Of a stretch of 64,000 nt of DNA, positions 3,701 to 44,430 are shown in pieces. This stretch comes from Botryllus schlosseri (taxonomy: Eukaryota), in the NCBI GenBank assembly GCA_051294905.1, contig CM119372.1, forward strand, positions 4,466,001 through 4,530,000. Direction: 5' to 3'. The position numbers and the translations under genes were made by a program. The notes under the pieces were generated by a model, which did not search any database, was not told the DNA's origin, and worked only from the letters and a program-made list of their open reading frames with translations. Numbering within the stretch: position 1 is the stretch's first letter; each line of letters begins with the position of its first letter.

Positions 3701-6700
3701 GGAGTAAGAGTGTACGTGACTGTACGATTATACAGTGCAATACATATAGGGAGTAGCGTGGCGAGTGCGCTATTAAATGGCTTGTTCTACTTCTCAGGAG
3801 CGACACCGGTCTCGCGAGGACAGTTCCAGCGAAGCCGTGGACGAATCAGGTGGGTTGATTACGCGGAACATACCGAAATAGCACAGAATACACGGCCTTT
3901 TATTGCGATTAGAAGCACACCGGCGCCGTATTCCAATCTGCGCACACGTATATACACGACACTGCGACACGTATATGCACCGCATACGCAAATGCGTGAA
4001 TAAAACCGCGGTCTTGCTTTTCTCTTGATTTGTTAGCGCTATCGACCGTGACGTGACGTCATAGTCAGCGTTGTCATCGTCTGTATTACAAACCTGCGTA
4101 AGTTTGTAATTCATAGCGTCTCTCGGCGTTTCGTAGCGATACCGCGACAATGCGGCGTGGAAATTTGAACCGGGCGAAAATAGGACTGACTTGTTGCTTT
4201 GTGTTTGTGTCTATGAGAAAAACGGAAGCGCTAGCATATATAGCACGCGGAAGGTAATCAAGTAATTATAATGGGACGAGAGATGGGCAGTTGGTTTTGA
4301 AACGATTGCGCGCGTCGGGGACAGCAGGATATGACCTTTAATAGTATAATGCACTATGCAATTGATTCTCAAACTTCAAAATATATGTTTCGGACCGGCG
4401 AACCTTCAAGAACCGAAATTCACCCAAATTTTATTTCCGACAAATGCGTGCAGCTGAAATGTGATATTGAAAACTGCGGATCATGATGTATTCTTGATAC
4501 TAGATATTAATACGTGGTTTCGCTTGGATTTTCTGCTAGGCGAAGCTCGCGAAGTCCCGTTAAAGACCGCTAACCTGATTGCCATTGTTCGGTGTCCTTT
4601 GGCAGAAATGTGACGCAGCCAAGTGCAGCTTAATTGCACGGTCCGAATTTAACGAAGTTTGTTCAAATGTCCCCGTAGCATTCGCGTATAACTATTCCGA
4701 AACGAGTTGCTGGCTACTTTCATACAATTTGTTGGCACACTTGCACCATTGCGACTTGGGAAGGACGCCCAATCGAGCTCTGTATTGCGACAACATACAC
4801 AAATACGTTCCACGCAAATGCACGCTCCGCGATTTGATACTTTGGTGCACTGGATGATCTCGATTCGTCATGACCGTAAATGCGTCAGATTGTCCACTGT
4901 CCATACGTCACCGCTTCCTAATTGCGCCTCTCAAAACCGCGTGGTTTTACGAGTCCCGCGCGCCTAGTTTTATTACCGCTGTATACCGCACTGTTAGCCG
5001 ACCGCGTTTACGTGAGCAGCCGCTTGCTTGTTGCACGTGTTTTGAAATTGAATGATGTATACATCGAAATAAACACGGATATTTTCGGCTGACACTCGTC
5101 GGGGGTAATCGTCAGTAATCTGTACAGAATTGAATATACGATGTTCTTTCCGATTCTCTACTAGTTGCTGACGATTGCCCCTGACGAGTGTCGGCCGTAT
5201 TTCAATACGAACACACTATCAAATAACATACTGAAGCTCTATCTGCAACTTGAACAGTCTGATCAATTTCTTAATTACTTTTTCGCGCAGGCGCAAAGGT
5301 CAACATGAAGAGAATGAACTCGATGAGCCTGGACGGGCAAGGTCTCATTATCAGCCCTCTCGCGGGCACGCAGCCCCTGCTCGTGTTTATCAACCCCAAA
5401 AGCGGAGGGAAACAAGGCGTGAGGTGGGTGAGGTCGTGTTGCGAGCTCGACACAACGGTTCGGAGCGTCGTACATGGTCGAACGGCAGTGCCCCCTCATT
5501 GTATGATTGAATTTTTTGCCCGTTTTGAACCACGGTATAGATTATTATAGAACGAACACTGATTGCGTCTCGTTTGACAATAGTGGTTTACTAGGAGATG
5601 TCGGTACCGAAGTACTATAAGTTTTTCCCAACTTGCTCTACTGAAGTGGTTATGTTTTATACTATATCTTATTAACAGATCTTCAGACTTTTTTACTTTG
5701 GATTTTATGAAGTAGTAAGTGGTTTTGCGATAATCCCTTGTCTGTATTATGAGTGAAACTGTCCTGCCTGCTGGGCGATAGAGCCCCGGTACCGCCGTGT
5801 CTGTATGTAGTTTCGTAAATTGCACATATTTGATTTTGATCATCATTTCTTTGGCGCTAAAACGCACCCAGCATCTTCGGAAGAGGCAACCTACGATTAT
5901 CTGATCAACCTAACGGAGGAGTATCTCTGAAACTACTTTTCGTATCATCATTTTCGACTTTTACTGAGAAGTAGTTTCAACATGTCCCGTAAATACTATT
6001 TCTACATGTAATTGAGTAGATATGTTCTGCGTTTACTTGAGTCACAACGCCGACTACTTTCACCGCCTCTTGAGTTTGCGCATGCGAGATATACACTCTC
6101 GCGTTAGCTCTACTATAACTATGTATCTTCCGCTATCAGATTACTGCGGAAAATGCAGCACCTCCTCAATCCGCGCCAGGTCTACGACTTGACGAAAGGC
6201 GGGCCCACGCCCGGCCTCAACTTCTTCCGGGAGCTGAAAAACTTTCGCGTTCTATGCTGCGGCGGCGACGGAACCGTGGGATGGGTCCTGGACTCAATCG
6301 GTGGGTAAAGTGCGGGAGTCGAAACGTGGGCGCCGCATGACGGGTACTTGTCAAGACCGAAGCTATAATTCTAATTTATTTGATACTTGCACCCGTTGAA
6401 ATGGGTGTAAACGCAAAATTGTGTATCACCAATTGCCTTTAGCATAATCGCGGCCTGCGCTATTGGCGGAAATGGTCGAGGTACACGATTCCCGTTTTCG
6501 GTGTTGATTTTGTGACAGCTGTCCCCTGGATTTTTGTGTTGAAAGTGTAAAGTTCTGCGAATTTGCATAGAGTATCCGTAGTGACGCGATAAGCTAGGCG
6601 CGGCCGCCGCGATTGCACGCGAATTCGTTTTATAGATTTCAACTTGGCGCGGTTGATTTATTGCTCATAAAACCTGAATTGCGTGTATGCAGACAAAAGC

Positions 6701-9700
6701 GGCATCACGAACCGACCTCCTGTCGCGATATTACCACTCGGAACCGGAAACGACCTCGCCAGATGTCTTCAGTGGGGAGGAGGTACGAATCTGGGCCTAA
6801 TTCTAATCTAATTTGTGTGAAATATTTCTATGCTCATTCTGCTTTCTGGTTCTGGAACTGTATAATGCGAAACGAGCCAGGCTTGCTGTGTACAGACACT
6901 TGCTATTCTCATGTTAGTGAGAATGAACTATTGTTTGATAAGCCGATTAGCCGATGTCCAAGTTATCGGGAATCCAGAAACTCTAATCCTTGTCAAATTT
7001 GGAAAGAGCTGTGGAGCTATAATTCTAATTTTAATGGAATTTGGGAAAAAAATCTTTATCTACAGCAGTTTTAATTCTAATACAATTTCGAAAAAGTCTG
7101 AATCTAATCTCGCTGATATGGCCTGCAGGTTACGAGGGCGGCAGCGTGATGAAATGCCTGCAGCAGATCGAGGCCAGCCAGACCGTGATGATGGACCGGT
7201 GGAATCTCCGGGTCGATCCGACTCCGGACACGGAGGAGAAGGGAGATCCGGTTCCGTTGAACATCATGAACAATTACTTCTCCATCGGCGTGGTGCGTAT
7301 TCGCTGTACACAAAGCTCGGCTGGTTTAGCTCTATACAGCTATCTTGTAGCATTTTCAGGAAAACGAGAAATTAGATTAGAATTAAAATTAGAGCATTGA
7401 AAAATTTCGCAAATTAGATTAGAATTACATCATCGGCATTTCGCTCTTAACTGATGTAACTAGCCAACGAGAATTGTTCAATTGTCGAAGTCGTGGTGAA
7501 ATGGGCTCGATACGCACCAACTCTTATTGAGATACATCACATGGTGAGAGTGGGTTCTGTATTCGCGTGCCACCCCAAGCCAAGAAGTTCAAAAGGTTAT
7601 AAACGTAAATTTTATTTGTATTTCGCGGCATTGATTTTACGCTCGCTGATCGCCGAGGGTTTACGTTCGCGTTAGTTCCGCCGCGGTCGGCGTTCCCGAG
7701 AAAATATTTGATTTGCGGAGGGTATTTTTAGACGGGCGGTGATTAAAATTTGATTTCGAGAGTAATTTCGTTTCACGCCGCGGATATTGAGTGCCCGGTG
7801 ACGCGTTTGATGTTAGTCACGGCGCTAATGCTTATCGAGTGGATGCTTAGCGTCGTATTAAAACAGGATGTTGTTGCGGCCATTTTTGAACGTATCGTTT
7901 TTAAATTAAATATACAAGCCGTGAAAATCTAAACGATGTTCGGGACAGTTGATGACGCGTTAGTCATCGATTTTTCTTCCAAGAAAATATTTGAGAGCTT
8001 CTTGGAGGTACAGAATTCAATATACAATTGAAGAATATATTCATACTGAAATAAACTCTGATATTTTCGGCTGGCGCTCATCAGGGATAATCGCCAGCAA
8101 CTGGTGCAGAATTGGAAAGAACATTGTATATCAACAATCGTATCACTAAACACAATATTTTTGTCTGACAGTTTTCAGCGGCTAATAGAGACTTGTTGAT
8201 ATACAACGTTCTTTCCCATTCTCTACTATGGTAGCTGACGATAGAAAATCCCTGGCGAGTGTCAGATGACAATATTCGGGTGTATTTCAATATGAATATG
8301 TTATTCAATTGTGTATACAAATGTCGGGGGCACGAACTTAAATGTACATAATGAACATTACGCAGTGAATATCTTGTTAAAATGTATGTTTTTCTTCGCG
8401 CTGACCGCCTGTTTTCATTAAGGACGCGATGATCTGCCGGAAATTTCACGTTATGCGGGAAAAGCACCCTGAAAAGTTCAACAGCCGAATGAAGAACAAG
8501 CTCTGGTATTTCGAGTTCGGCACGTCCGAGACGTTCGCCGCCTCCTGCAAAAAGCTTCACGAAAGCCTCAAGATCAAGGTAATGGTTTCGCGATTCTTAT
8601 AATTCATCGACAGAGGTCAAATTATTGTCGCTCGACAACTAATTACGAAACTATTTCAGGTCGACGGGAAAGAAATCGACCTCCAAAACGGGCAGAGATT
8701 TCAGGGCATCGCGGTGCTCAACATTCCGAGCGTGTACGGCGGCACGAATCTCTGGGGCACGACCAAGAAGCGTAAGAAGAAGCTTGCCCTTCCCGCCTCG
8801 GGTTCAAACAAAGAAGAGTTTGATATCAAGTACGCCGGGCAAGGTATGGTGATGTCTTCGGTTGCATTCAATATACATTTCCAGACAGGGATAATACGTT
8901 AGGTTTGTTGTTGTTAGGTTTGTTGAGACACTTGGACGGGGTTATGTAAATCTGCATCGCGACTTGGAATTTTAAATGCGCTATAAGCGAAAATCGTAAT
9001 TTCACACCCATTTCGATTGGTGTAAATCAATAACCAACAGTTAATTGTCGTAAGCACGAGAATGCCGAATGTCTGTACAGCAAGCTTGGCTCGTTTGGCA
9101 CTATACAATTCTCCTGTATCATTTTCAGGAAAACGAGAATTAGATTGGAAATGAGACTAGAGTATAGAAATATTTCACAAATTAGATTAGAATTAGATTA
9201 CCATCGTTTAGATTTAATTAGTCTAATTATTCAACTAAAATTATCTAAAGTTGTCTGAGTCTGGCGTGATGGCTATTCGGCGAAACATTCATTTCGTTAT
9301 TGGTTGCAGAAGAATGATTATCAAATACCTCGTGGGTGTCGGCTCGGTTTCATTTGTATTTGTATTTGAATAAACACCGCCCGACGCTATTTATATCGCC
9401 TGTGACGTGTGCTGCTGCAACAGAATTTCCATTTACCACCAGCAGCGTTGTTTATTCGACATCCGGTTATTGTGAACATAACCCATACGACGTCTCGCGA
9501 GTTGATTCGTGTAAATCCAACGCAAGTACAGCGCTTTCCATACCCGTAACGTTTTCTTCGCGAACTCGACCGGCTATTCGATAATATTGATAGTTTGGTT
9601 AAAAAGCTCCTGCGTGCCAAATTCGGTTCAATTCCAAAAGAATAGTATTCAAGGTGTGAAAGTCTAAAATTCTCAATTGGCAACTACCCACCGTAAATAC

Positions 9701-11947
9701 TATTATTTAAAATCCAAAATTTTGAACGCCATTAACTTCGGTTCTACCCGAGTATAGCCTAGCTTCTAGACGCTGGAATTGAGCCAAATTTGGTGTGCAG
9801 CGCTTTTTAGCCAACCTAACAATTCTGTCAAATACCCGGATAACTTTAAAGAAATAAGATATTTGTGAACAATGCTAATATACAGTATTGACATTTTAAT
9901 AATATGCGTAATCGTCAATCCGTGTTTATATTATAATCGACCGTTGTTTTCCAGGCATGGGCGATAAGTTTTTGGAAGTGGTCGGAGTGGTTGGCGCCAT
10001 GGAGGTGGGCCAGATTATGGCCGGTCTGAGAGCCGGCAACCGACTCGCGCAGGGACAGGTCATCGAAATCAGGTAGGTTTCGTTTATCTCTGTGGAATAG
10101 TCTAATCACACACAGTACAAGCTACCGTTATATAAATGTGTATTTCACGATATAGCGTAAGGTGTAGCCTAAATCAGGGGAACTTCAATTTCTAGTAAAT
10201 GGAGACCTCTACTTACTTACCAACTTGTATTTACATCTGATTGCCTCTTTTCCTGGTCAGCCGCGATAGTATTCTGATTGGTTTGTTATTCTGCAGTACG
10301 ACGAAGCTGTTTCCGATGCAAGTCGACGGCGAGCCGTGGATGCAAGTTCCTTGCAAGGTGATTGTTTTGCATATTTGGTGATGCGATTGTTGATATACAA
10401 TGTTCTTTCCTATTCTTTACTAGTTGCTGACGAGCGTCGGCCGATAATATTCAGACTTATCTCAAAATGAATATACCATTCCATTGTATGTTGAAGTTCT
10501 GTACCTCCGAAAAGCTCTTCAAAGTTCTTTATAACGCAACGGCCGATGCGTGGCCTGATAAATATTTAATAAATATCCGACTCTATCGGATTTATACTTT
10601 TGCGCGTAAGCCAACCAAGGCGATTGAAACGGCTGCTCAAATCGATGGCGAACTAAATAAGGAAAACCAGCTACAAAATCTCGCCACCTGCTCCGTCTCT
10701 TGAGGCGCAGGGGCGTTAATCCCCGTTGAAAGCGCACTCATCTTCCTTGATGAGTTTGATAAGGCGCATACCTTAGATATGACCAAACCCGGTCGCATTG
10801 ACTTCCAGTAATTGTGTACTGGTTGTCGGAGTTTCATAATTTTTGATGACCTTGCGTGCGAACCGGACTTGTGTAATGTAAACTGCTGGACTTTTAAAAT
10901 TCGCAACTACAACTAGAGCTGTGAACTTCTCGCACATTTTACAATGTGCAACTTTAACTCCTCACTGCTCAAAAGTTGCAGCTACAACTAGTACTACTCC
11001 CTTTTCAAAAGTCGGAACTATGGAACTAAAACTACTCGCTTTTGAAAATCTGCAACTAGAACTAGAACTACTAACTTTTCAAATGTTGTTACCAGAACTA
11101 GAACTAGAACTACTCGGTTTTCAAAAGTAGCAACTAGAACTACCCACTTTTAAAAAGTCGTAACTGAAACTAGAACTACTCACTTATAAACTGCGCAACT
11201 AGTACCTGAACTAAAACTTTTGAAAATCCGCAACTAGAACTATACTAATAAACCGATAGTTAGCTGAATGCAGGGTTGTAACCAAGTCACAAGGTTCCGA
11301 GTCACAAGTCAATATCACTTTTATTGTTTTGACTCGAGTCAAATCGAGTCATTTTCAATTCACCCTCGAGTCAAGTCCGAGTCCAAGTCATTGAGCTGAG
11401 GGTCGCATGTATATTATTATAATTTTCCTCACTTTTAGCAGTTTCTGGTCGCATTTTCAAGTACCAGTACTAATCGGGCGAAATCAAAGTGGGGTGGTTA
11501 CTTCACAATTCTTCGAAATTACGATGAAATGTCGGTCTTAGCCGTCTCAGTCTCGAGTCAATGACTTGGTTCGAGTCATGCGCAATGACTCGAGTCCAAG
11601 TCGAGTCAATAGACAGATTGACTCGAGTCGAGTCGAGTCATTTCAGTATTTTTTTAAAATGACTCGAGTCAAGTCGGGTCATCAGGAAATCGTGACTCAA
11701 TCGGACTCGAGTCGAGTCATGACTCGAGTCATTACAACCCTGGCTGAATGTGAACTAACTAAATTGGTAGTTTGTACATGTACAATGTACATGTATGGTG
11801 CGAAGACTGAAATAAACCGCCTTCTCTCTATTTCAGATCGAGATCAACCACAAGAACCAGGTACCCATGCTGATGGCGTCGCCCTCCCAGCATTCTTCAA
11901 TATGGTCGTGTTTCGGGCGCAATAAGACTGTGTGCGAAGACGCGTGA
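745..11947 (+). CDS. DGKB: Diacylglycerol kinase, type I (DGK alpha/beta/gamma-like), 5'-partial, 13 coding exons visible
   Basis: GT-AG exons with consistent phases: 745-833, 897-1013, 2575-2673, 3798-3849, 5291-5423, 6140-6300, 6693-6782, 7129-7292, 8423-8578, 8660-8843, 9955-10072, 10297-10357, 11837-11947 (TGA). C1 domains (CKYAAHERC..., [36 protein letters not shown]). Catalytic motifs [37 protein letters not shown]. Accessory domain [56 protein letters not shown]. The symbol is approximate: probably a co-orthologue of DGKA/B/G. Confidence 0.95.
7992..8320. mobile_element. Hammerhead-bearing dispersed repeat (Penelope-like/retrozyme-like fragment), inverted pair
   Basis: Consensus gattgttgatatacaatgttctttcc..ttctctactagttgctgacgattacccctgacgagtgtcagccgaaaatattcgggtttatttcaatatgaatat...gaagttctgtacctccaagaagctcttc. 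Other copies at about 1822-1975 (-), 5055-5240 (inverted pair), 10380-10522 (+), 21083-21237 (+), 33165-33210 (-), 45085-45170 (+), 52635-52660 (+), 61450-61622 (inverted pair). Confidence 0.7.
8056..8098 (-). ncRNA. Hammerhead-like motif copy with canonical CUGAUGA core
   Basis: Minus strand reads GCTGGCG-attatcc-CTGATGA-G-cgccagc-C-GAAA-atat-cagag. The cleavage site and stem I are degenerate. Confidence 0.5.
11271..11742. mobile_element. hAT-type MITE rich in GACTCGAGTC subterminal palindromes
   Basis: TIR CAGGGTTGTAA...TTACAACCCTG, perfect TSD GCTGAATG. Inserted into an (ACTAGA/ACT)-rich repeat spanning about 10900-11775. Other copies at about 49634-50312 (reverse), 52825-53281 and 58115-58569. 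Confidence 0.92.
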
Positions 11948-20613: not shown

Positions 20614-21127
20614 CTTATAGTTGACCCCAATCAAGTTTCTCAAAGTGATATTCATTGATGAAATATCAACCCTGCTTTTGACAACAACCTTGATAACCAA
20701 GACCGCAAACTGCGAAGCTGCTCACAAGTATACCATCAAATGCTTTCAGGCGTCAGAGCGGAAGGAGGGTTAGGTCGTGTCTGCTCTACATTGCATTGTC
20801 GGTACTATATCTCATCCGTGACTATGACATCACGTGAAAAGTATTCATGTAAATAGTTTGGTAAAGTAAATTTGGTGGAAGGTTTACTTACTTTTGACCG
20901 TTATAACGATTATAATATAATCGGTGGCGGCTACTTTAAACTGCAAGATGCGTCTATCAAACAATCACTAATGCCGCTACAATCTTCGAAAAAAAAATAT
21001 TCAGCCGTTACCCAGATATCTTTTAAACGGGTTTTGTATGCCTTTTCCAACTTATCCAAAAACTAAAATCCAAAGAAAATATGATACGATTGTTGATATG
21101 CAACGTTCTTTCCATTTCTGTACTGTT

Positions 21128-21171
21128 GTTGACGATTACTACTGACGAGTGTCAGCCGAAAATAATCGGGT
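21128..21171 (+). ncRNA. Minimal type I hammerhead-ribozyme-like motif (best-preserved core of a dispersed repeat family)
   Basis: GTTGACG-attacta-CTGACGA-G-tgtcagc-C-GAAA-ataa-TC-gggt: CUGANGA and GAAA cores, 1-bp stem II, NUH triplet AUC. Stem I is imperfect in this copy (acta/gggt; family consensus accc/gggt). Confidence 0.6.
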
Positions 21172-21400
21172 TTATTTCGATATGAATATAGTATTCAGTT
21201 GTATATATTGAAGTTCTGTACCTCCAAGAAGCTCTGCAAAGTAATTTCGTTTTATATCGTAGTGCAAGTAATAGGCTAAATTGCCAAGTAGGTACTTAAA
21301 ACAAAGTGGAAGTTATTTGTTAGTGAACACTTCTGAAAACAGTTATGTTCGCTATGTTCTCCGCAGTAACATCAGCTATAAGGCGCTGATGGTTGCCACT

Positions 21401-24400
21401 TCATCGATAGTACACGAACAGTACGACCATCGCTATTAGCATTAACACGCAGAACACGTTGACGATGATAGAAGGCACTTTCTTTTCCGTGATATCTGTT
21501 ATGACGGGCGCAGGTACGCTTCCAACTGCGGTTGTGTCCTTCAAACCGCAGAAAAGGTCGATACCCTTTTTGTAACATGGCTTGTCGACTTCTGGATGAA
21601 ATATATTTTGGTATCGACATTGGACAATGATCGCGGGAAGGAAATTGCGAGACGTTACCCTGTTCTGCCGGGACGGGTTTTACCCTCTCACTGTTCCCAG
21701 GAAGGTCTGTGGTATTTTGTTCTTCGTCGCTTGAAAGTGCTGGGTTTACCACGCCAGACATTTCCACCTGTTTAGCACGTTAAAGTAAATCGTATTTCAG
21801 CGGATGCGGCACATCAATATAATAGGACGCAGTATCTTTTCGTTCTGTTTCCACGGCATATACACCGACTCATAATACATATACAATACACGGTCTGTGC
21901 ATATGCAATTATGCATACTATGAGCATGGGGCATATACCGATGGACTTGGACAAGGAAGCTGCTTGTAGCTCGGCTAGATGTCACCAAAGAACATCACGA
22001 GAGGAAAACCTTACCAAAAACACAGTCCACAGCGAACATCATGCATGTTATATTGTATATTAACGCCTTTTTACGGGGTGCGAATCACGCTATATACCGA
22101 TACAAGAAGCTGAAATGCCTAGAAGGAACAATTTATCACATCTACATAAACCCCTTAAATCAGTGGTTCTCAACCAACCGGTCCGTGGCAAGTTCCCTGC
22201 CCGCCACCAAATATATTCTAATGTTATCTCCCAATTCCAAAATGCAAGAAGCTGGACGCTTTTTCTTTCATTTGAAAAATAAAACATCACATTTCAAATT
22301 GATTTATGGAAGTTTGGACAGTATTTTTCCGCATGGTGTTGTAATAGAGAGTATAGTCTACTGGGGTGAAATCACAATGTCATTCGAAATTGTTTAAAAG
22401 TAGCCTACAAATCTTTTTGGACGAGTTATATGTGAAAGATACGGAGACTGTTAAACAGACTTCGTTAAATCCGACCGTGCAATTAAGCGACAATTGGCCG
22501 TATACTAGAGGTTATAGCAAACAGCCAAGTCGCATTTCTGTCAGGGATCCATAACAACCACAATCAAGTTAGTGGTCTCAGGAGTTCACGAGCTTCGTCG
22601 TGCAGAGACTTCACTAGAATCATGCATAAATATCTAGTGTCAAACAGGCAGAATTAAATGAGCTTTCCAATACAACATTTGAGTTGCATACATTTGTCGC
22701 AATTAAATTTAGGGTTAATATTGATTTTTGAAGGCTCATCGCCCGCAACATGTGCTTTGCAGTTTTACCGCAGTCCGCGAGGTCAAAAAGGCTGAGAAAA
22801 ACTGCCTTGAACCGTAAAATCAACGATGGATATATTGCCAGAGTGATTAAATTCAAAACTGCATCATATGTTATCTTTTTTCATTATACCCAAGCACAGG
22901 GTGAGATAGTTTTTGGATTAATAAAATGTATTGAGACGGACCCTGAATAAATCCAATCGGATATAAAATGATACTTGCGGCCATAATAACTAGAATTCAC
23001 AGCTATTATCAAGTAAATTAGAATTACATTCTGAGCCAAAGTACATTCGAATTGTAATGATTGAATTCGCGAAGAGTTGGACAATGAATGTAGTTAGGCT
23101 CATATCAAATCAGATTTCAATCTAATAAGCATTTGAAGGGCAAATGTGTGTACAGCAAGTTTGACTCGTTTCGCGCTATACAGTAGCATTTTCAGGAAAA
23201 TCGGAAATTACATTAGAATTAAAATTAGAGCATAGAAACATTTCACAAATTAGATATGAATTAGATCACCGACATTTCGCTCTAATTAGTCAAATTAGAC
23301 AGCTAGAATTATCTGGTTGACCAAGTCTGATATTAATGCAATGCCTTACTTCAGCCCCCTTGGCAGTTTCCTTATAAATTGGTTTCCTTTCGGCTTTACT
23401 GTATCTCGTATACCATGTCAACCGGTACAGCTGTGATGCAGGCGTCGGATTCAGTCGTTTAATGCAGTCCATCTTTTAAACGGCTACTTACGTGTTCTGC
23501 CGGGATCGCGGGAGTTAAATATGAAACCACTACGGCGATGACGAGAGTGCAGCCGGCCAAAATGAGCGCGAAATGCAGATAGTGAACCTAGAAATGAAGA
23601 AACTGATTTAGGGGTATGGCGGCATCGCTGAATAATACCTTTCGCGGTAGAAGTATAGGTAACATGTATCACGCAGGCTCGGGAATAATGCAAATTTCAT
23701 GAATACTGCAGCTGCAAGCATACGAAGTTGAATTGACACTTTCTGGGAATGATTGATCGATGCAGTGATCAGTTTTGTAAGAAATGCCGCGTCGCATATG
23801 CAGTCACGATGTAACAGGTGTGAAATATCATGCAGAGTTGCAGACCTGTTCGCGACGGCACGAATTCCTTGTTTACATGTAATGTAATTGATTTAATACG
23901 GATTATTTGCATCTGACATTGCGCGACTGCCAAATGAAGGTTCAACAGCGGTTGTACGATACTATAATACTGACTTATTAAAGCTGGAAAGTTGGTTTTC
24001 TGTTGAAGACATCGGCGGAGGTTATACTATCACTTTGTAGACGGCAATATTAGACACTATGGGCATGGGTACCATATACCGAAAAGATACCGTAACGAGG
24101 CTGAGCGTCCGGCTTCTTGATTGCTAGTGGATCGGTTCAATCCCCACCCATTACTGAATTCACACTCTTTTCGCTAAGAGTTCATGAATAGGTCTTACCT
24201 TATAGAGAACAGCTGGTCGAAATTCTTCCTCTCCGCATAGCGGTGCTCCGTACGCAAAATCCATGATCATGCGGATCAATCCAATGACAAGTCCTATCAT
24301 TAGCGCCCAAAACGCTCCCTAAAATACCATTAATAGACACCACGCGCGTTAATATACCAGATAAACGTCATTAATTACTCACGGGCTCGTTGAGTCGCGG

Positions 24401-27400: not shown

Positions 27401-30400
27401 TCCTAAAAGAGGTCATATTATGGTAGGCGTAATGTTATTTCCGTACGAAAATATTTAGCGAGTATTTCAAGTTAAATGCAGTCTTTATCTTGTTTTTACC
27501 TTGCCGGGCATCGCTTCGCTGAGAAACATGCTGTATTACGAATGGTAAAACTATTTGAACTCAGCGATACGAGGTCATAATCGCCGCCAGTAAAGCGTCC
27601 GCAGGATGGTTAAGGCTAAGAAGCGACGAACGCAAAATAGCGGTAAATAACCAGTTTAAAGAGTTGCCGAACAACCAGAGGCGAGCGCGCTTGCAGAGAA
27701 ACACTATTAAAATACCTTTCAATCCTGTAGGTAAAATTTTGAGCAATAATTTAGGGTAGGCGATGTTGCTACATCCGACTTTCGTTCCACAATACTTCAT
27801 ACACTCATCGGGATCGGCGCAAGCAACGGCATCTGTAAATATACAACGAAATGAAATTTCGCGCATAAAAAGTAAGGCTATTATTAAGCTCTCATACAAT
27901 TTAAGCCCCTAAAAGGTATTACCGTAACTGCCATATGCATAAAAATTTAATATGATACTGATTCAGGCTGCATTTATGCAGGTGTAGTGACTCTAAAGAT
28001 GATAATATTGAGGTGCCATTTGTCAATGATTTTCAGGTTTTGAACTATAATGGGAGAGTGCCTTGGAGTCGCGAAAATTGACTAGCCATAACCGACCTGG
28101 ATTAGAAAATTTCTAGCTTTTCTAAATTTTATTAGTGTTAGAATCATAGCTATACTATTTTTTCCAAATTAGACTAGAAATATAATTATAACTACATAGT
28201 TTTTCTTTCAAATAAGATTAGAATTAGAGTGAGAGCTACACAGGTTTTTCCAAATTAGATTCGGATTATAATTCTGAATTCGCGAAGACTTAGAAATTGA
28301 ATCGCGTTCAGTTCCTAAAGTTCGTTCTCATTAATTCAATCATTTATCCTCATCAAAATTAGAATTACTGAATTCGCGAAAGCTTGGACTGGACATTGAA
28401 TAAGTTCAGTTCATATCAAATTTAGAGTTCATTCCCGTAAGCATGAGGCTGCTGGCAAATGTCTGTACAGCAAGCTTGGCTCGTTTCTAGCTATACTGTT
28501 CTCCTGTAGCATTTTCAGGAAAACCAAAAATTAGAGCATAAAAATATTTCTCAAATTAGATTAGAATTAAATTACCGGCATTTCTCACGAATTAGTCTAA
28601 TTAATAGACAATTAGAATTATGTAGTTGTTAAAATCTGGCTACAATAAACTCATTATGTTCGCTTCAACAACCTGTGAAAACCACACGGCTAATCATCCC
28701 CACCATCACCATCATGTACATTGGCAAGATTTTCAGCAAACCAGCGAACACGCAGCCTCCCTTCGCGTGAGTCAAGCTACGCGCAGCCAAGGTACGCTGC
28801 ACGATCACCTGTTAACGAACATAATATCATCAGAGGTAGGAAAATCAGTCGTCGTCGTCGCAGTAGCAATTTGTAAGACATCTCAAAACTGTACTTCAAG
28901 TGGATGAAGATAATTGCAGGCCTGAAAAATCTGATTCGAGTTATAATTCTAACGATTCGAGTATAGAATAGTAGGAGATTAATTTTGCTAGTACTGAAAG
29001 TATTCAGTCGTAACACATTCAAAGCCTGCAATTCTATTCCACCTACTTGGTCCGTGCACCAGTACCACGTGGCAAGTATCGTAAGACCAAAAGTCAGTCC
29101 AGGCCACGGTAAGTCTCCGGTAGCGGCATCTCGAAACACGCTGAAGGAGTCAGCTCGCGGCGTACCGCACGACTGGTTTTGGACTACGATCGACGGTGTT
29201 GCGTTCATGTATTTTTTCTGTAACTCATCGTATCCGCCAACATCGATGAAAGCTGGAATTGTATTCCTCTAAATTAGGGGTTTCCGACATAAGGGTTGTT
29301 GGCCTTGGGGTCGCGTAGAGGAAAATTAAATGCCGATGACTATCACGGGAATGCCACTATACCGGGAGCTATCAGCGGCTTATTTCAGATAATTTTAGTC
29401 AAAATAGTTTTTAAAAAAACGACATTTGAGTATAGTAAGAATGGTGTCTTTCCATCACTATTATAGTACTGAATAACTTATAGATCGTTATCTGTGTTTG
29501 CGTGGCGCAGGATTTCACGTGCTTCAGTACTTCGATGTGTTAGAGATATATATCGGTCAAAAAGACTTATATACGTTGCTGTGGTCTTGACAGACGGAGA
29601 TTGACGAGTTCATAATTGCATAATTGCTATTACTACACACATAGTTGCTATAGCTTCCCACATAGGTGGTGGGTTTGGTGGAAGGTGCTGACCATCTTAG
29701 AGTAATCAGAACGCCAAATTCAAAGGTGGATCGCGGAACATTCTCAAATCGAAATATGGTGCCGTGACCATAAGAAGGCTTGGAACCCCTGCTTTGCAAA
29801 TCAAGCCAAACGATGCTCTGTCAAATTTGTCGCGCGTATATACTAACCCAATATCATCATAGCAAATCCGCCGATGAGCATGATCAACGTCTGCGCTGTG
29901 TCTGTGTATATCACAGCCGCAAGACCGCCGGTGACAGTGTACAGCGCCGTGATAGCGAGGAGTAAAATCATGGCGAAATAGATGTTCCAGTGCAAAGCTT
30001 GGTTTATAAACACGGCCCCGGCGAATAGATCTGCCTGCAAATCAGAGGGATTACGTTAGGTTAATAGCTCGATTTTATAACGCGATTCGGTGTTAAAATT
30101 TTGTGTCCAGGATTTATGAATAAATTTTCCAAAATGGTAACTTAACCCCAGGTCTTCTACTTCGATACTTATGTGTGTAAATTAAACTTGGCATAGCCCG
30201 GAACTATCTGCTTTAACAAGATTAATAATTGAGCCGCAAGAGAACGCACGAAAGTCAGGAGAAAAGTCAATTCCACACAAAATATCGATGAATGTCAGTT
30301 ACTCACAGACACTTTCGTGAAAATAGACAACAAGAGAGACAGCACGGACAAGTACATCCGTATTCTTTGACCTCCGAATCTCTCACGTAAATATTCAGGC

Positions 30401-31876
30401 ATCGTCACCACGCCTGCCGCTATGTAGATTGGGGCAAATATCCATCCAAGTAACGTCAGAGTGATCATAGCCTGTAAACGAACGAGCGAAACAGTGTGTT
30501 TCTTCCAGAATTGAACGAATAGAACATTTTCAGCCTTTCTTAGTTAGATTATAATTGGAATTATAGCTGCATCTTTTTTCCAAATTAGATGACAATTGAA
30601 ATTATAGACACACAGTTTTTTATCCCAATTTGATTACATTTGGAATTATAGATACACATTTTTTCAATAAGATTATATTTATTAATATAGACACATTTTT
30701 TCCAAATTAGACTAGAATCAGAATTGCAGCTACACATTTTTTTAAAAGTAGACTATAATCATAATTGTAGACACACATTTTTTTCAAATTAGATTAGAAT
30801 TAGGATTATCGATACACATTTTTTTCAAATTAGATTAGAATTAGAATTATAGCCACACAGCTTTTTTTACAAACTAGATTACATTTGGGATTATAGATAC
30901 ACATTTTTTGAAAATTAGACTAGAATTATAATTAAAGCTACACATTCTTTCGATTAGATTATATTATAATTATTAGATCATTATTAATTATTAGATTATA
31001 CTTATGGATAGGCAGTTTCTTTTTCGGATTAGATTAGAATTGGTGTTACTAAATTTACGAAAACTTGGAGATTGTCCCAAGTTCAGTTCATATCAAATCA
31101 GAGCTCAGGCTGGGCACGGAATTGGACAGGGACAGCTAGAAGATTTTCAGTTTTTCCAAAATATATTAGAATTAGAATTATAGATATGTAGTTTTTTTCG
31201 AATTAGATTAGCAATAGAATCGCTGAATTTGTGGAAAATTGGATATTACATCAAGTCCAATTCATAACGAATCATGGTTCATTCTCAAAAGTAAGATAAT
31301 GGCAAATATCTGTACAGCAAAACTTGTCTCGTTTCGCACTATACAGCTCTCTTGTAACATTTTCAGGTAAACCAGAATAATTAGATTAGAATTAAAATTA
31401 GAGCATTAACCTTTCGCAAATTAGACTACAATTGTATCACCGGCAGTTGGCTCTAATAGTCCAATTATACAATTAGAATTATCTGTAGTTCTCCAAGTTT
31501 AACTATCTATTTCAAGCTTACGTTCCATTCGAAAGCGCCAACTGCGATACCCGCGGCTGCACCAGTCCCGGCCAAACCCACGAAATGCCCGCTTCCGATA
31601 TTGCTCGAGAACAGAGACGCGCCCACCGGTAGCCAATGCATATTTCGCCCAGCTAGAAAGAACCCATTCACGCTGCCTCGATTCGTACGAAACATGGTCT
31701 GAATATATCCAAACCTGTTACCTGACTCTAGTCTTATACTAATAATGTGCATTCAAAAACCTTACCCATAGTCCGACTGCTATTATGAAAATGAAATATA
31801 CAACGATCACTGCAATGTCGCCTCCTTCCAATTCCGCCTGGCTCGGTACCGTAGTAGTGCCGGCAGTAGTTGACAT
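21401..31876 (-). CDS. SLC5A: Sodium/glucose cotransporter (SGLT, SLC5A family), paralogue A, about 668 aa, 14 coding exons
   Basis: Minus-strand exons 31876-31766, 31698-31522, 30471-30307, 30034-29848, 29252-29047, 28808-28673, 27832-27716, 26649-26508 (GC donor), 24551-24383, 24318-24199, 23587-23492, 23430-23350, 21767-21659, 21591-21401; total 2007 nt, open frame. Motifs [86 protein letters not shown] and a terminal TM helix. Confidence 0.95.
24686..26332. mobile_element. Composite hAT-type element in SGLT-A intron 8 with several nested insertions
   Basis: TAGGGTTGCCATA...TATGGTAACCCTA, perfect TSD GCCTACTT. Contains a MITE at 25825-26172, another at about 25051-25257 and a LINE-tail-like segment ending AATAAA..(GAT)n at about 25330-25557. 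Confidence 0.85.
30530..31497. repeat. (ATTAG/AATTAG)-rich dispersed repeat family, here with tandem subunit expansion
   Basis: Recurrent aaattagattagaatt..atagatacacattttttt units and a shared core tgtacagcaagcttggctcgtttc.cactataca...cattttcaggaaaac. Copies at about 6800-7110 (reverse), 7305-7450, 8930-9263, 22990-23329, 28090-28638 and 43452-43786. Confidence 0.8.
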
Positions 31877-33588
31877 TGTGACTGTCGGCCTAGATCTACA
31901 GTGTTATAACTATACGGCTGAAAATAGTGAGTGCTCACAACTCAGCCTGCGGAATTGCTACCGAAAAGGTGTCGGGTAACAAACTGTTTCGCCCAGAGCA
32001 AGTTTTTCGCGCTAATTATTTGCAAGGTGAGTCAGACACTCTCTCCTTCAATTTTCTGGGATAAAAACGCAGCACGGAAGGACATTCCTCTTACATATAT
32101 TGCTGAAGTGGTACGGTTGATCGCACAAGGATACAGATGTTACAATGCCTGCCTGCTCGAAAGGTAATCGTGAATGCCAAATCGGTCAGCAGACGTTTCA
32201 GTTTTTAATTGTACCCACGCCCGGACGATTTCATGATTAAAACGAAATGTTCTTCCAGCTTAATTTATCATGTATCTGGTATTTCTTCTGGCCGCGCCTC
32301 TGCATGCGGTGCAGGTAGTATCGTACTCCAAGATGAATATTTGATTGTAATATTTTTCCAAATCGTTTCGGCTCATTCGTATCTTTTGATTGGGTCACCA
32401 TCTTGTGGCGTTTTAAATTGGTTTAAATATTTATAAACTGAACCTTATTGAAGACGCACTTACTTGGCGGAACCTTACTATTATAAAATCTTCAACTGTT
32501 TCCAATTATATTTATGTTGTAATAATGCTGCTTACCAACTCGTCCATTGTCTTGTTATCATCCCTCACATCTAACGTGCTAAGTGGATACGACTACATTA
32601 CAAATGCAGCTTGCATTGAATATTTGCATTCCGAGGTTAACGATTTGCTGTGTCCTTTGGCACGCTTACATGATGACATGAGGCTCGTCTGGGCGTGAGC
32701 TTTCAAACTTTCCGAAGCCAAAAGATATCTCATAAACATTACATATCAAAAAGGAACTATGACAACTGAGATCGCGATATGATTTATTACCTGGATAATA
32801 CTTCCTTGGATTTACGAATTTAGATATCCTGTTCAAGGTGCATCTATTCGTCAACCAAGGCTGTCTATAACGTTGGATGCGATACCTTACGCAGTTTGAT
32901 AACAAGTAGCTTTCTGGCGCATAGCACGTAACCACTATCAACCCAAAACTTATTTGAATACGCTCAACGAATTTCGATTACTCAGTTTGTAGTCAGAAGA
33001 TGGTGTTTTGAAGAACCCTTGTCATCTGTATGCGCTTTGTTCACGAGAAACAGAATGTACGTGTCTTGGAAATTTTATGCCGCTGTGTTTTCGCCGACTT
33101 GTCTCGAAAACCTATCCTGTCAAGCCATGTTTTTTAAAACGTTCACTTGGTTGCAGTTATAGATTTGAAGAGCTTCTTGGAGGCTATTGAATAGTATATT
33201 CGTATTGAAACGAACATACTATGTTCAGTTATATAGAGTTGCAAATATGTACAGTGCATATATTGAATACTAATACGTTTTATGCCACAAGCAAGATACA
33301 AAGTGAAGATCATACTAGTCAATAAGTCATGGCAATAGAATTTATTGATAAATCACTCCCGCTCCATTGAAATAGCTATTGGCTACGGAATTACAGACCA
33401 TATGCGGCCAAGATTTACAAGAATCCATATATTATTCCATGAAACGATGAGCTAATACGTAATAAGCTTACGTGGCGTCATGAAACGTCTAATATTACTA
33501 ATGCTTTTGGAATCTTGATTCGCATAGAACCGCCTATACCATTCATATTTTTATCGCAACCATACGCGTAAGCAATGTACAATGCGAC

Positions 33589-36500
33589 CTACGCGTAAAA
33601 TGCAAATAAAAAGACTCCTGCGCATAACATAACCAGACAAGCTAGATTCACGATGGTAGCGGGCCACCTTTCCTCTGTGATATCTGTAATCATCGCAGGT
33701 GGCGGGCCCTCCTGTGGCTTCACTTCGTCTAATCCGCAGAACAAATCGATGACTTTTCTACAGAGCGATTTTTCTAAAATGAAAAGATTGTTGTTTTACA
33801 AATCGCACTTCCTGAACAAATAGGTCGAGCGGTGTGGTATTTATCGGTAACAGCAGAATAATTCACAACAGTTGTAGCATAGATCTGGAACCTATGCAAT
33901 GCATGTCGTGTTGACAGCGCACAACGAACTCAGCTTAGACTTTGAAGATGAGCAATTCATGGAAATTACCGGGTAAAATATATCGTGACATTATGGTTTA
34001 AACACATTCATTCCTCCAAGACCAATAACTTCTTACCTTCCTTCCTTCATTCATTCATTCATTCATTCATTCATTCATTCATTCATTCATTCACTCATTC
34101 ATATTGTCAAGTCGAAGTGAAGAAGTTAATCCTGACATGCGCGCCAGAAGGAATTACTTCATTTACGGCAGTGGTCCCCAAACGGTGGGGAATTCCCCAC
34201 TTGTGGGGAATTCAATGGTTTCTGGTGGGGAATAGACGAATTTGTTTAAAATTATATAGAGGACAGTCTACATATTCACGGAGACACATGCACAATTACC
34301 GTTACCAGTTAACTGCTCTGGAATGTATGTAACGAAAATTATGTTGCGTGTGGTTCACAAAACCTCATTTTTAACTCTGATGGCCAATCATGGCGTCACA
34401 AACGCATCCAGCACGACTAGTGTGACGTGAAATAACGCTTTCGGAAAATTTTGAGCGTTACTGGTATCGGTTCACAATACGTTTCATGTTGTAGTTATAG
34501 GCGATTGTCTTGCGTACTGGCGCGGTTGTGTGTCTTGTGTAGTCAAACCAGCAAATAGCTGCCACGTGATGACAAAAGTGCTGGGTAGTGGGGAACAGGA
34601 CCGTAACTGCCTCACCTCAAACCACCTAATTGGTGGGGGGGGGGTGAGCTCGAAGGGGCTCAAAATAATTTCGTGAATTAACATAAATTGAAGTATTTTT
34701 GAAAATTTATGCCACTTTTTCAAAAAATTTTCGTGCTTGGTGCACGATTTAATATTGCCGAATATCTGATTATTGGGTGCCCTGCCCCCACGAAAATGCG
34801 TAGAATTAATAGAAATGGAGACTTCGGCGTCGGCCATTGCTGCGCCATGACGCACCGATGCATATGAAGTTATAGGCCATGTAACATGCAACCCCGAGAA
34901 GTGTGCCAGAACCATCAGCAGCGAGAAGACCTTGGCCGAGAAGGAATGCCCTTGTGGTGACCCAAAACTTATATATATATACAATATACTTATATGTTCA
35001 ATTGGCTAAATAGCTGGCACCGAATGTTCCTGTCCTGGCGATATGAACACCACAGGACAAATGCCATCCCGAAGGGGAAAATTATTTGCCAGTAAAGCAA
35101 TACCAATTTGAAATCGTGTGTTCCTTTTAGTTTGTCGATATCGATATCTTTTGACATAGCAGAAATAGGAGGTCACGAAATAGCATAATGTAACGAAGTC
35201 AATATACCAACGGGTCCGCCCGAAGATGTTCAATTCTTATTTAGGGGTCCTACCTTTTCCAACACACTTCACTCAGATCTACCGGTAAATCTGATTACGT
35301 GAGCAGAGAGGGGATAAATATTGACAGCAAAATATACACAATGCCCGATCATATTGGCCGATTCAAACACGGATTATATAAAAATTTCGCGCTTCGCGCG
35401 TTTAGTTGAAATAAGGCTACGAACTAAACAGTAGACCTAATGTAGCTGATAAGTTGCAGGGGATAGGGTACAAGCTCAGCGGGGCTGAGGGGATTCTGGG
35501 GGCCCAAAACCAACGTTTTTTTGGCCGGGCTGACAAAGTGTTGTTACGGCCCTGGTGGGAATGAAGGCTCGGAATAAATCTGAAGTGGGGAATGAAGACG
35601 AAAAGGTTGGGAACCACTGATTTACGGGGTCCTCATAATCTTTACTTTCATTCAGTTTCATCCTTACCTGACACTGTTCAGTATTCGTTATATCCTAATC
35701 TAAATGAAGTATCTCAATCCACTACACATGGACAATAATTATAGTTATATTTTTACACACTCGACTTGATCATATCGGGTCTATAAAGGTGTATGTTGGC
35801 TTGGCATTTAACGAAGTGTTGATTTACTATAACTGTAGTGCGTACACTGTACAGTAGGGCTCTTCAAAAATGACTTTTTTTCTCAAATCGTACTGGCTAC
35901 TTGATAAAATTGTTAGGTTACCTAATTTAAGCCTACACACAAAATTGGATTCAATTCCAGCCAGTAACCGCTTTGCTACACGAGAATAAAGTTTCTATTT
36001 ATTATATAAAAATAAATAACAAAAAATTTCAAAATTTTCTGTTCACCTCATGAAAGTGTTAGGCTGTCTATAGAAACGATGCTCACCAAATTTGGTTCAA
36101 TTCCAACCAGAGGAAGCGGAGTTATTGCCGTCGAAAAATTTTGATTTGAATAAAATAGTATTTACGGTGACCGATTCTTTGTTTATTTATTATAGTTGTG
36201 CTCACCGTAAATACTATTTTATTTAAATCCAAATTTTTCGGCGGCAATAACTCCGCTTCCACTGGTTGGAATTGAACCAAATTTGGTGAGCATCGTTTCT
36301 ATAGACAGCCTAACACTTTCATGGGGTGAACAGAAAATGTTCAAATTTTTTATTATTTATTTTTATATAAGAAATAGAAACTTTCTTGTCGTGTAGCAAA
36401 GCGGTTACTGGCTGGAATTGAACCAAATTTTGTGTGTAGGCTTAAATTAGGTAACCTAACAATTTTATCGAGTAGCCAGTACGATTTGAGAAAAAAAGTC

Positions 36501-39500: not shown

Positions 39501-39861
39501 TTTTTAGGATTTAAAGCAGATTTAGAGCAAATTGCGAGTGATATGCCATATATTAGCACAGACGTGAAGCTCCGACGGGTGAAAAACGGTGAATTTAGCT
39601 CTGAGCGAAAAGATGACCTTTTTTTTTTTTTTTTTAGTCATCCACCTAGCAATGTGGGGAGAAAAACGGTATTTTGAGTTCTGAGCGGAAGAGATGACCT
39701 ATTTTTATTTTTTATTTTTTTTTTTAGTCATCCACCTAGCAATGTGGGGAGAAAAGCGGTATTTTGAGCTCTGAGCGGAAGAGATGACCTTTTTTTTTTA
39801 GTCATCCACCTAGCAATGTGGGGAGAAAAACGGTATTTTGAGTTCTGAGCGGAAGAGATGA

Positions 39862-42727: not shown

Positions 42728-43363
42728 CAGAGATGTTCAAGAATGATTTTTTTTTCAAATTGCACTGGCTACTTGATGAAATTGTTACGTCACCTAAAAA
42801 CGCTGCACACCAATTTGGGCGCATTTCCGACCTATAGAGGCATTGTTACAAGAGAGAAAAGTTTTGGATTTATTTAATAAAAATAAACATTAATTGTTAT
42901 CAAATTTTACTGGCTATCTCACGAAATTGTTGGATTGCCCGAAAAAACGATGAACAACAAATTTGGCTAAATTCCAACCCGTAGAAGCGAAGTTATTCGA
43001 GTACAAAATCATGGATTTGGAAATTCTTCAATTATTATGTATTATCGATCCACCCACCGTAAATACCATGATTCGAAATTTCAAATTTTGAACATCAATA
43101 ACGTCGTTTCTACTGGTTCGAATTGAATCAAATTAGTTGAGCATCGTTTATCAGACAATCTAACAATTTCGTGGGGTAGCCAGTAAAATTCGACCAAACT
43201 TTATATTTATTTTTATTGAATAATTCCAATTTTTTCTGTTATAGCAATGCCTCTATAGGCCAGAATTGCACGAAAATTGGCGTGCAGCGTTTTTTAGGTA
43301 ACCTAACATTTTTATCAAGCAGCCAGTACAATTTGAAGAAAAAGTCATTTTTGATCATCCTTG
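42728..43363. mobile_element. Older, diverged full-length copy of the fold-back MITE family
   Basis: Imperfect palindrome homologous to 35855-36517; degenerate TSD atgtacag/atgaacgg. A further fragment lies at about 9570-9830. Confidence 0.75.
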
Positions 43364-44430
43364 ATGAACGGCTGTCTCGCTTCTAGGTGGCTTGAGTTCC
43401 CCTGGTTCAGAGTCAATCATCTGGAAAATGATACCAAGCGTACACCTAATGCCAGAGTTGGACAACTATAGGCTTAACTATTCCAAATTAGATTATAATT
43501 GGAATTGCTGAATTCTCGAAAGCTTGGAAACTGAATCGATGTCATGCGGTTTATATCAAATCAGAGTTCATTATTAAATGTATGGGAATGGCAAGCGTAT
43601 ATAGAGCAAGCGTGGCCCGTTTCGCACTATACATTCCTACTGTAGCATTTTCAGGAAGACCAAAAATTAGGTTACAATTAAAATAGAGCTTCACTTTTTT
43701 TACAAATTAGATTGGAATTAGACTACCGGCAAATCTCTCTAATTAATCTAATTAGACATTTAGGATAATCTAGCTGTCCAGGTCTGCCTACAGATAAAGC
43801 CCTCATCGCTCCACATTAACCTCAGTTAAATCCACACTCCACTCAATGTAGTTTAACATTATAACTACGGCAGTCCATAGCGGACAACCTGACTGGCTCA
43901 CAGATTTTAATTTTTCAAATAATCCGTTTATACTTCACGAGCCTTTTACATAATGGTAATTCACGATATGGAATGAAGGCTTCTGTGGACTGTTGAACAG
44001 TATTTGCGGATGCCTTTTGTTGCCATATGCAGCGACGGCCTTTTGGGAGTTTTAGAGCAAATACTGTCATATTATGACACAATTTTACATCGGTTGTTGG
44101 TTTGTAACATTGTGATATGAGCGAGATGTGAGTATTCAATTCCGCTTTGACTACACCAACATATACACATACAGCGTATTATATGAGCACTATAAATCTA
44201 AATATAAATACTTTTCGTTCGTTCCGGCTATGGTTCTCCCCTCTCACACTGCTCCTGGTGAAAATGTGAGTTCAGCCCCTTACGATCCCCCTTTGTCCTT
44301 CACGTCCAAATATTTGCGTTGTACTCACTGTAAGAGAAAAAATAGGGTACCGTATACGAGCTAACACGTACCGATGCATAGATTTGGAATTTCACGATGT
44401 TTGAGATCAATTACAGAATGGACAATATGT

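Follow-up and report, generated by a model that had tools for sequence, protein, structure and literature searches.

Locus and repeat copies

The window, by which we mean the whole stretch of 64 kb that was analysed, covers positions 4,466,001-4,530,000 of the forward strand of contig CM119372.1 in the 495-Mb Botryllus schlosseri assembly GCA_051294905.1. It contains host exons, namely two pieces of a sodium:solute symporter and a Sushi-repeat exon, as well as several repeat families (Table 1). One inverted repeat, with 325-nt arms that are 96% complementary and lie 31 nt apart, belongs to a foldback or MITE-like family that has no relation to the element tails described below. A second pair of inverted arms (253 nt, 96%) is separated by 5 kb and has inner tandem repeats of 74-90 bp that are rich in T-runs; it might be a DNA transposon bounded by long terminal inverted repeats. 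In addition, a 41-bp AT-rich unit (TTTTTTCAAATTAGATTAGAATTAGAATTATAG...) forms tandem arrays and has scattered relatives, and a 175-bp unit is present twice, head-to-tail, the two units being 98% alike.

Dispersed among these features is a repeat in which the initial annotation had noticed about nine partial copies of a hammerhead ribozyme motif, and all nine of the named places do contain it. The 20-mer CTGAYGAGTGTCAGCCGAAA, when allowed up to three mismatches, finds eight matches in the window, compared to 0.00 expected (none in any of 100 shuffles), while the ninth copy (8234-8281) was found within repeat family D7 and on the blastn map, for which one natural element copy served as the query and which returned tail fragments. 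By contrast, a pattern that fixes only the core boxes (CTGANGA, 1-25 nt, GAAA) occurs eight times against 4.26 expected, with eight or more occurrences in 10 of 100 shuffles. The excess is thus a property of the repeat and cannot be attributed to the core boxes by themselves. All nine copies have decayed to some degree. The motif at 61558-61601, for example, differs from the intact 44-mer at ten positions, and the motif at 10415-10456 lacks exactly the 13 nt separating its two CTGACGA repeats, so that the 5' strand of stem I is gone and the region has become a plain hairpin, probably by slippage deletion. The window contains no reverse transcriptase (RT) or endonuclease (EN) ORF, nor any other long ORF, and repeat analysis revealed no short tandem arrays of the motif within it. 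At the level of the window, the copies are unremarkable, being defunct remnants of transposon ends in non-coding sequence close to host genes.

Table 1. Tail copies, parts of the motif at 21128-21171, host exons and other repeats in the window. Paired positions and strands are given in the same order.
Feature	Positions	Strand	Remarks
Tail copy	1823-1978	-	Motif 1885-1936; 8-nt insertion in stem I, C3 and G8 mutated
Head-to-head inverted pair of truncated tails	5063-5132 / 5134-5197	- / +	Motifs 5073-5116 and 5167-5197, the latter ending after GAAA
Inverted tail pair	7990-8150 / 8193-8316	- / +	Motifs 8055-8098 and 8234-8281
Tail copy	10370-10523	+	Motif 10415-10456; starts 13 nt past an exon-like end (...CAAG/GTGATT) at 10357
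5'-truncated tail of a Penelope-like element	21082-21240	+	Contains motif 21128-21171; about element positions 2568-2725 (numbering of the copy in locus L062); blastn 89% over 160 nt, alignment with 20 genomic copies
Pseudoknot strand a (from sequence and family covariation)	21128-21133	+	GTTGAC here, GCTGAC if intact; partner 21151-21156
Stem I, 5' strand, decayed	21138-21141	+	ACTA here, ACCC if intact
Core box CTGACGA (C3-A9) and G10.1	21142-21149	+	
Pseudoknot strand b (GTCAGC) and C11.1	21151-21157	+	Initially annotated as the loop of stem II
GAAA box, loop III, T16.1 and cleavage-site base C17	21158-21167	+	ATAA here, ATAT if intact; predicted cut directly after 21167
Stem I, 3' strand (GGGT)	21168-21171	+	
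Relic of the ORF start codon (ATG)	21182-21184	+	14 nt past the predicted cut; in-frame ATG in L062 and at the N-termini of homologues
Element scraps of about 30 bp	33186-33215, 52637-52666		blastn; the first (30 bp) sits between both symporter pieces
Truncated tail copy	45089-45165	+	Motif 45110-45153; C3 and G8 mutated
Inverted tail pair	61448-61526 / 61525-61624	- / +	Motif 61558-61601
Sodium:solute symporter pieces	28780-29268, 38363-38968	-	Host exons; Pfam SSF, E 1.9e-7 and 7.8e-28
Sushi-repeat exon	58867-59277	+	Host exon
Inverted repeat, 325-nt arms	35846-36526		Relatives at 42863-43229 and 60214-60501
Inverted arms, 253 nt	39382-39634 / 44650-44902		
41-bp tandem repeat arrays	30533-31220, 28117-28272		Scattered relatives at 7339-7447, 9107-9261, 23175-23329 and 43698-43786
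175-bp unit, twice	59369-59718		

Anatomy of the motif

The copy at 21128-21171 reads GTTGAC GATT ACTA CTGACGA G T GTCAGC C GAAA ATAA T C GGGT. Its core had been called intact, and every core letter is indeed kept, though the surrounding elements have decayed: two of the four pairs of stem I are lost (ACCC to ACTA), and so is the palindrome of loop III (ATAT to ATAA). The intact motif has the complete set of core letters and the G10.1-C11.1 pair; its stem I comprises 4 bp, an AAUAUU palindrome substitutes for stem III, and the gap between CUGANGA and GAAA is 9 nt in the window family. The hexamer GUCAGC directly downstream of G10.1-U is complementary to a GCUGAC located 4 nt upstream of stem I. 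In the predicted geometry G10.1 stacks on this upstream strand, with one base bridging the 6-bp helix back to its far end, as in a classical short pseudoknot loop. Two other placements of the ribozyme were ruled out: the first of the two CTGACGA boxes is not followed by a G10.1-C11.1 pair or by a helix II, and the opposite strand has no core box.

The host element

From its sequence, the repeat is the 3' tail, and thereby part of the pseudo-LTR, of an abundant and highly active Penelope-like element (PLE). Longer copies extend upstream into a coding frame, and in many genomic copies frames of up to 860-863 aa are open without stops. The 840-aa translation of the copy in L062 contains an RVT_1 domain (E 7.7e-9, 36 bits compared to a cutoff of 29.6). 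ORF matches on contig C16 (20951496, 20954188, 20956880 and 20959573) are spaced by 2,692-2,693 bp, head-to-tail, such that the frame continues from one unit into the next. Of the adjacent RT and GIY-YIG frames and tandem arrays that the initial annotation had proposed to look for, the RT domain and 2,692-bp tandems are present, whereas Pfam GIY-YIG stays below its cutoff (15.3 bits compared to 22.6, E 0.026, residues 35-62 of the last 157 aa). A string of the form VVYEY.C.C...YVGRT...R..QH was recognized by eye near the C-terminus, PF01541 is precomputed in one of 52 ORF homologues, and a Pfam search with a 345-aa C-terminal fragment returned nothing above cutoff.

Inverted partners are a further feature of the element, whose units frequently abut a 5'-truncated copy in the opposite orientation. 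In L021 a 323-nt arm is inverted with respect to a 335-nt arm and represents a 5'-truncated partner, and pairs of minus and plus elements are found many times genome-wide, including three in the window. Of 26 tail matches, five of which duplicate others because the loci overlap, nine have their 3' ends at element positions 2690-2695, 16 at 2718-2725 and one at 2706, which gives two main classes about 33 bp apart. PLEs are described as having an optional "tail" of 30-40 bp and two RT start sites (PMC8557442, PMC11167929). Since the RT domain, the tandems, the inverted partners and the two 3'-end classes are all marks of PLEs, as far as these are set out in the same two sources (PMC8557442, PMC11167929), the element is a PLE, and the earlier proposal of a ribozyme-carrying, Penelope-type family scattered through the locus is supported by these features. 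The comparison with retrozymes did not hold, in that the copies are tails of elements and not short arrays. An animal non-LTR retrozyme, with head-to-tail monomers of about 150-400 bp, was considered as the source and rejected, the copies being dispersed singles, inverted pairs and the ends of 2.7-kb units.

Homologues with identities down to 38% start at the same methionine and have the N-terminal string ..LKFCT..LFKYFR.RY in common, indicating that the ORF begins inside the tail, 14 nt past the predicted cut. The final part of each tail copy is therefore the start of the coding sequence, and the motif is located 37-71 nt from the 3' end of the insertion, within the piece that every copy retains. 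The 5' ends of the 26 tail matches are widely spread; as the region upstream of the cut had to be present in this sample, copies starting at the predicted cut would have escaped it.

Abundance of the intact motif

The exact intact 44-mer, which spans the upstream strand through stem I, is present in 2,539 copies in the 495-Mb genome, and the reversed pattern used as a control in none. The consensus initially drawn by eye from the decayed window copies is letter for letter this majority genomic sequence. When only the flanking sequence of the motif is specified, the number of genomic matches rises to 3,766 (control, 0). In an alignment with 20 genomic copies, the window-family copies have a common 3' end and variable 5' ends. 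The copies within this main family, as judged from the first 100 of the 3,766, vary only by scattered single changes, so that neither the pseudoknot nor selection can be tested within the family. When the window copy at 7985-8150 was used as the query, the same family was retrieved (87-91% identity), which makes the compensatory GCUGGC/GCCAGC of the motif at 8055-8098 an isolated case that could be due to chance. A candidate older subfamily marked by GAGCG was not upheld: the pattern has 129 matches (control, six), and the 100 that were listed mostly represent the young sequence carrying a single T-to-C change.

Covariation across element families

Distant protein homologues used as genome queries led to further PLE families with unit lengths of 2,722-2,825 bp. 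Two of the 17 loci obtained (L127 and L129) are without an upstream partial copy and hence without a readable spacer. In all of the 15 readable loci, which belong to at least six families, the same build is observed: six bases, a gap of 1-4 nt, stem I, the core, a G, one base, another six bases, a C, GAAA, a palindromic loop, U, H and the second strand of stem I, followed by 9-23 nt to the ATG. Ten sequences from at least six PLE families of the same genome were aligned (alignment A1), with L125, L133, L136 and L137 omitted as identical in the motif to retained rows, and L132 omitted as differing from L130 in one base ahead of the pseudoknot strand.

Standard pairs are found in 118 of the 119 cells of this alignment, and seven of the 12 pairs have changed on both sides, with covariation in the pseudoknot, in stem I and in the core pair C3-G8. 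The covariation score is 0.578, compared to 0.208 in shuffles, none of 500 of which reached it, and in controls in which the partner strand was slid the pairing dropped to 21-43%. For the pseudoknot helix alone, 60 of 60 cells are paired and four of six pairs changed on both sides, the forms being GCUGAC/GUCAGC, ACUAAC/GUUAGU, CGUGCC/GGCACG and UGUGCC/GGCACA; as all rows derive from a single genome and the families are related, such cell counts overstate the number of independent events, of which at least six double changes were counted in this helix. The core pair C3-G8 is switched to U3-A8 in six of ten rows and half-switched in none, G10.1-C11.1 is invariant in all ten sequences, and H17 is C or U throughout. 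Loop III takes the forms A-AUAU-U, A-AGCU-U, A-AGUUCU-U and A-AGUCU-U, which are self-complementary apart from a central U-U. Beyond the four aligned pairs, complementarity of stem I was noted by eye (UUCGCUA/UAGCGAA, UAUUCCC/GGGAAUA and UUAACUC/GAGUUAA). The core is CUGAYGA or its paired variant UUGANAA, the latter in three families (L122, L126, L135, L128 and L130-L132), and one copy (L128) has UCGAUAA, with a C at the normally fixed U4.

The spacing of these elements restricts the possible folds. In all ten sequences the gap between the boxes is 9-10 nt, which makes a hairpin helix II impossible, and the partner strand of the pseudoknot ends 1-4 nt before stem I, so that there is no room for the returning strand of a helix IV. 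On this comparative evidence, stem II is replaced by a covarying 6-bp pseudoknot with the 5' flank. The hammerhead with a 1-bp stem II that had been proposed initially is consequently upheld as a hammerhead by the covariation across sister families, whereas its bare stem with a free loop is not, the supposed loop being a strand of the 6-bp pseudoknot.

Between families, the spacer can be aligned at three places only: the hammerhead itself, the start of the ORF and a TGACGTCA-like box. This box (T[GT][AG]CGTCA) is found at L062:2553-2560, with equivalents in L121, L122, L124, L128 and L131; in these six families it lies about 55-95 nt upstream of the pseudoknot strand. The window copies begin further downstream and do not contain it. 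The box may belong to the internal promoter of the pseudo-LTR.

RNA reads and predicted folds

Four raw RNA-seq runs from two studies (X23, X21, X22 and X24) were searched. The depth in bins of the ORF is 0-8, compared to about 180-650 in bins of the tail, where it is similar on both strands, and 63-96% of reads across the runs (96% in X23) continue into unrelated flanks. The coverage is read as passive co-transcription of dispersed tails. In none of the four runs do read starts or ends pile up at any place, the predicted cut included, which indicates that single-copy transcripts are mostly uncut in vivo and argues against fast cleavage of single copies. The lack of read ends fits with the need for a dimer, and equally fits with no cleavage at all. 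For the PLE hammerhead of Anolis, it was reported that the RNA cleaves in vitro, that no in vivo ends were found at the site in the data presented there, and that the biochemically active hammerhead overlaps the ORF start (PMC11167929).

Minimum-energy folding gives a mixed picture. The hairpin of the pseudoknot is contained in the fold of six of the ten sequences. In F1, F4 and F5, the core box CUGAC is instead paired with GUCAG, in F2 stem I is extended, and a hairpin that sequesters GAAA together with the cut site recurs in F1, F8, F3 and F7. The Rfam hammerhead models, to which the initial reading would have directed a search, have no match in the window, either at the gathering score or with E up to 10, and none in a separate search of an intact copy (201 bases) with E up to 10; this holds for hammerhead families of every type, the pseudoknot hammerhead included.

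Comparison with known hammerheads

Minimal hammerheads (min-HHR) with a palindromic loop, regarded as a dimer design, have been described in the pseudo-LTRs of metazoan PLEs by Cervera and de la Pena (2014; PMC4209133). The Botryllus motif resembles them, as they are presented there, in the host element, the position in the terminal repeat beside the ORF start, the type I topology and the short stem I, as well as in the invariant G10.1-C11.1 and the reduction of stem III to a palindromic loop (PMC4209133). Thousands of dispersed, truncated copies and opposite-strand pairs 100-700 bp apart are likewise common to both, and the U3-A8 core is the same variant as that described for the PLEs of Schistosoma (PMC4209133). 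However, the min-HHR is drawn with a hairpin helix II of 6-8 bp that follows an unpaired base between A9 and 10.1 (PMC4209133), and the Botryllus motif is without it; here, the second strand of helix II is located 5' of stem I. In the table of canonical PLE hammerheads given by Craig et al. (2021; PMC8557442, File S2), all 38 rows have a two-stranded stem II with its own loop.

The use of a pseudoknot for helix II is known from other hammerheads. The crystal structure of the pseudoknot hammerhead is reported to show a 6-bp pseudoknot helix taking over the role of helix II (Zhan et al., 2024; PMC11300833). As in this bacterial and phage class (PK or RAGATH-1), the 6 bp of the Botryllus motif are predicted to involve the inter-box "loop" and to stand for helix II, with helices I and III in their usual places. 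In RAGATH-1, the partner is the loop of an additional stem-loop, helix IV, joined through an A-rich linker to helix I; the ribozyme is described as a fast monomer (PMC11300833). By contrast, the Botryllus motif has a single-stranded partner beside stem I and no helix IV, it resides in an animal retrotransposon, and its stem III is predicted to need a second copy. An RNA of type II reported in 2011 (PMC3088659) is also similar, in that the bases following G10.1 pair just 5' of the stem I strand leading into the core, and in that it has a 1-bp stem II and a 6-bp pseudoknot. According to that report it cleaves fast, and mutants of the pseudoknot are from 20-fold to more than 100-fold less active (PMC3088659). 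It is described as open at stem II (type II), bacterial or metagenomic in origin, and equipped with a normal stem III (PMC3088659), whereas the Botryllus motif has a dimer-type stem III and a pseudoknot strand that continues into C11.1, which would make it closed and thus type I. By its sequence features, then, the motif is a dimer-type PLE hammerhead with the architecture of the pseudoknot hammerheads: a known kind in a different build.

Lunse, Weinberg and Breaker reportedly worked on minimal hammerheads in PLEs in 2017. Among the titles and abstracts retrieved by literature searches, no pseudoknot hammerhead in PLEs was found, and Lunse et al. (2017) may already show the form. A search of metagenome contigs with a core and loop III pattern gave 34 loci, all of them unrelated and many apparently, by eye, inside coding regions.

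In the scheme of Craig et al. (2021; PMC8557442), the Botryllus motif would be classed as "HHR_core," a category that comprises Naiad and other PLEs with CUGANGA and GAAA at a distance of 7-17 nt for which the stem/loop descriptors failed. The "HHR_core" cases are left unexplained in the parts of that work concerned with them, and belong mostly to elements with an N-terminal EN (PMC8557442), whereas in Botryllus the putative EN is C-terminal and the pseudoknot explains the absent helix. Three consensus tails of nematode Naiads (PMC8557442, File S5), which are listed without canonical hammerheads, can be read by eye as complete hammerheads with another order of blocks. In these tails stem I, CUGANGAG and a stem II strand come first, followed by a long loop complementary to a run 5' of stem I, then a stem III strand, GUC and the second stem I strand, and finally a stem II strand, CGAAAC and the second stem III strand. 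This order is that of the non-circular "type CSG" of Eckert et al. (2023), as far as the type is laid out there, and the stems covary among the three tails. Nematodes are not mentioned by Eckert et al. (2023), and the titles and abstracts retrieved by literature searches contained nothing on a permuted hammerhead in Naiads.

A proposed role for the ribozyme

From the observed anatomy, copy numbers, covariation and element structure we infer cleavage, a requirement for a dimer and a role in the processing of 5' ends. The reading as a whole, namely that the PLE tail encodes a type I hammerhead with a pseudoknot for helix II and a stem III formed by a dimer, and that it acts in 5' processing, we regard as probable. 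The intact copy would be a type I hammerhead with a stem I of 4-7 bp and the full catalytic core. Its stem II would consist of G10.1-C11.1 only, with the next six bases pairing 1-4 nt 5' of stem I and thus standing in for helix II, while stem III, reduced to A15.1-U16.1 around a palindromic loop, would form only between two copies. Transcripts that start in the upstream partial copy, or read through it, would be cut after C17, 9-23 nt before the AUG, and this cut would define the 5' end of the element RNA. Reverse transcription would begin at either of two internal sites in the downstream copy, which lie about 37 and 71 nt beyond the cleavage position, so that each daughter insertion would have the ribozyme near its 3' end, and 5' truncation would then leave relics of 70-170 bp such as the nine in the window.

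The main alternative is that the knotted fold is kept for a role other than cleavage, either as a handle for RT/EN in target-primed reverse transcription or as a 5' leader that aids translation, with the hammerhead core retained as a fold and not as a catalyst. In its favor are the position of the motif, which is close to the 3' end in the piece that is always kept and shortly precedes the AUG, and the RNA reads without cleavage ends. From related elements, it was reported that hammerhead-dead mutants of the Anolis PLE insert as well as the wild type in vitro (PMC11167929), and that the in vitro activity of PLE hammerheads is low (PMC4209133). However, the letters that are fixed are the catalytic ones, and C3-G8 and U3-A8 are exchanged only as pairs, as demanded by catalysis or at least by an active-site fold. 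Moreover, position 17 stays C or U and loop III stays palindromic, for which a protein handle has no need, so that we consider this explanation unlikely.

A second alternative accepts the ribozyme and denies the knot: a minimal hammerhead with a 1-bp stem II, a free 7-nt loop and a stem III formed only by the dimer, in which the upstream complementarity is an accident of a 13-nt duplication of CTGACGA. In the window family the upstream strand does overlap a second CTGACGA box, and the copy at 10415-10456 has lost precisely the 13 nt between both boxes. Yet the families F2 (ACUAAC/GUUAGU) and F3 and F7 (CGUGCC/GGCACG and UGUGCC/GGCACA) are without a second box and have nevertheless kept a perfect 6-bp match, and the complete pairing of the pseudoknot helix, with changes on both sides in the majority of its pairs, is not what an accident would leave, which renders this version quite improbable. 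That the core boxes are a chance look-alike within a repeat that has no RNA function is hardly credible, despite the frequency of core-only patterns in the window, the unrelated and, by eye, mostly coding metagenome matches and the absence of an Rfam match, since the same architecture recurs at the same place in at least six diverged families whose surrounding spacers cannot be aligned with one another, and compensatory changes affect three helices or pairs.

Significance

The preferred reading, a cleaving dimer-type hammerhead with a pseudoknot, bears on how ribozymes are counted in PLEs. The descriptors for PLE hammerheads demand a hairpin stem II, and elements that fail are scored as "core" or as having no ribozyme, which has contributed to the view that the ribozyme is dispensable. 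Every PLE family with a readable spacer examined here (at least six families, 15 loci) uses the pseudoknot build, a form that standard searches miss and of which a single family contains over 2,500 intact copies. The motif links the hammerheads of eukaryotic retrotransposons with the pseudoknot hammerheads of phages and bacteria, and yields a concrete descriptor for the re-screening of PLE tails, along with natural compensatory variants, including C3-G8 to U3-A8. We tentatively suggest, as a conjecture that may well fail, that knotted or re-ordered hammerheads are the rule in the PLE lineages listed without canonical ones, and that tails scored as "HHR_core" or "HHR_half_core" are working ribozymes. 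If this is true, hammerheads would be near-universal in PLEs and would have gone unseen by stem/loop descriptors.
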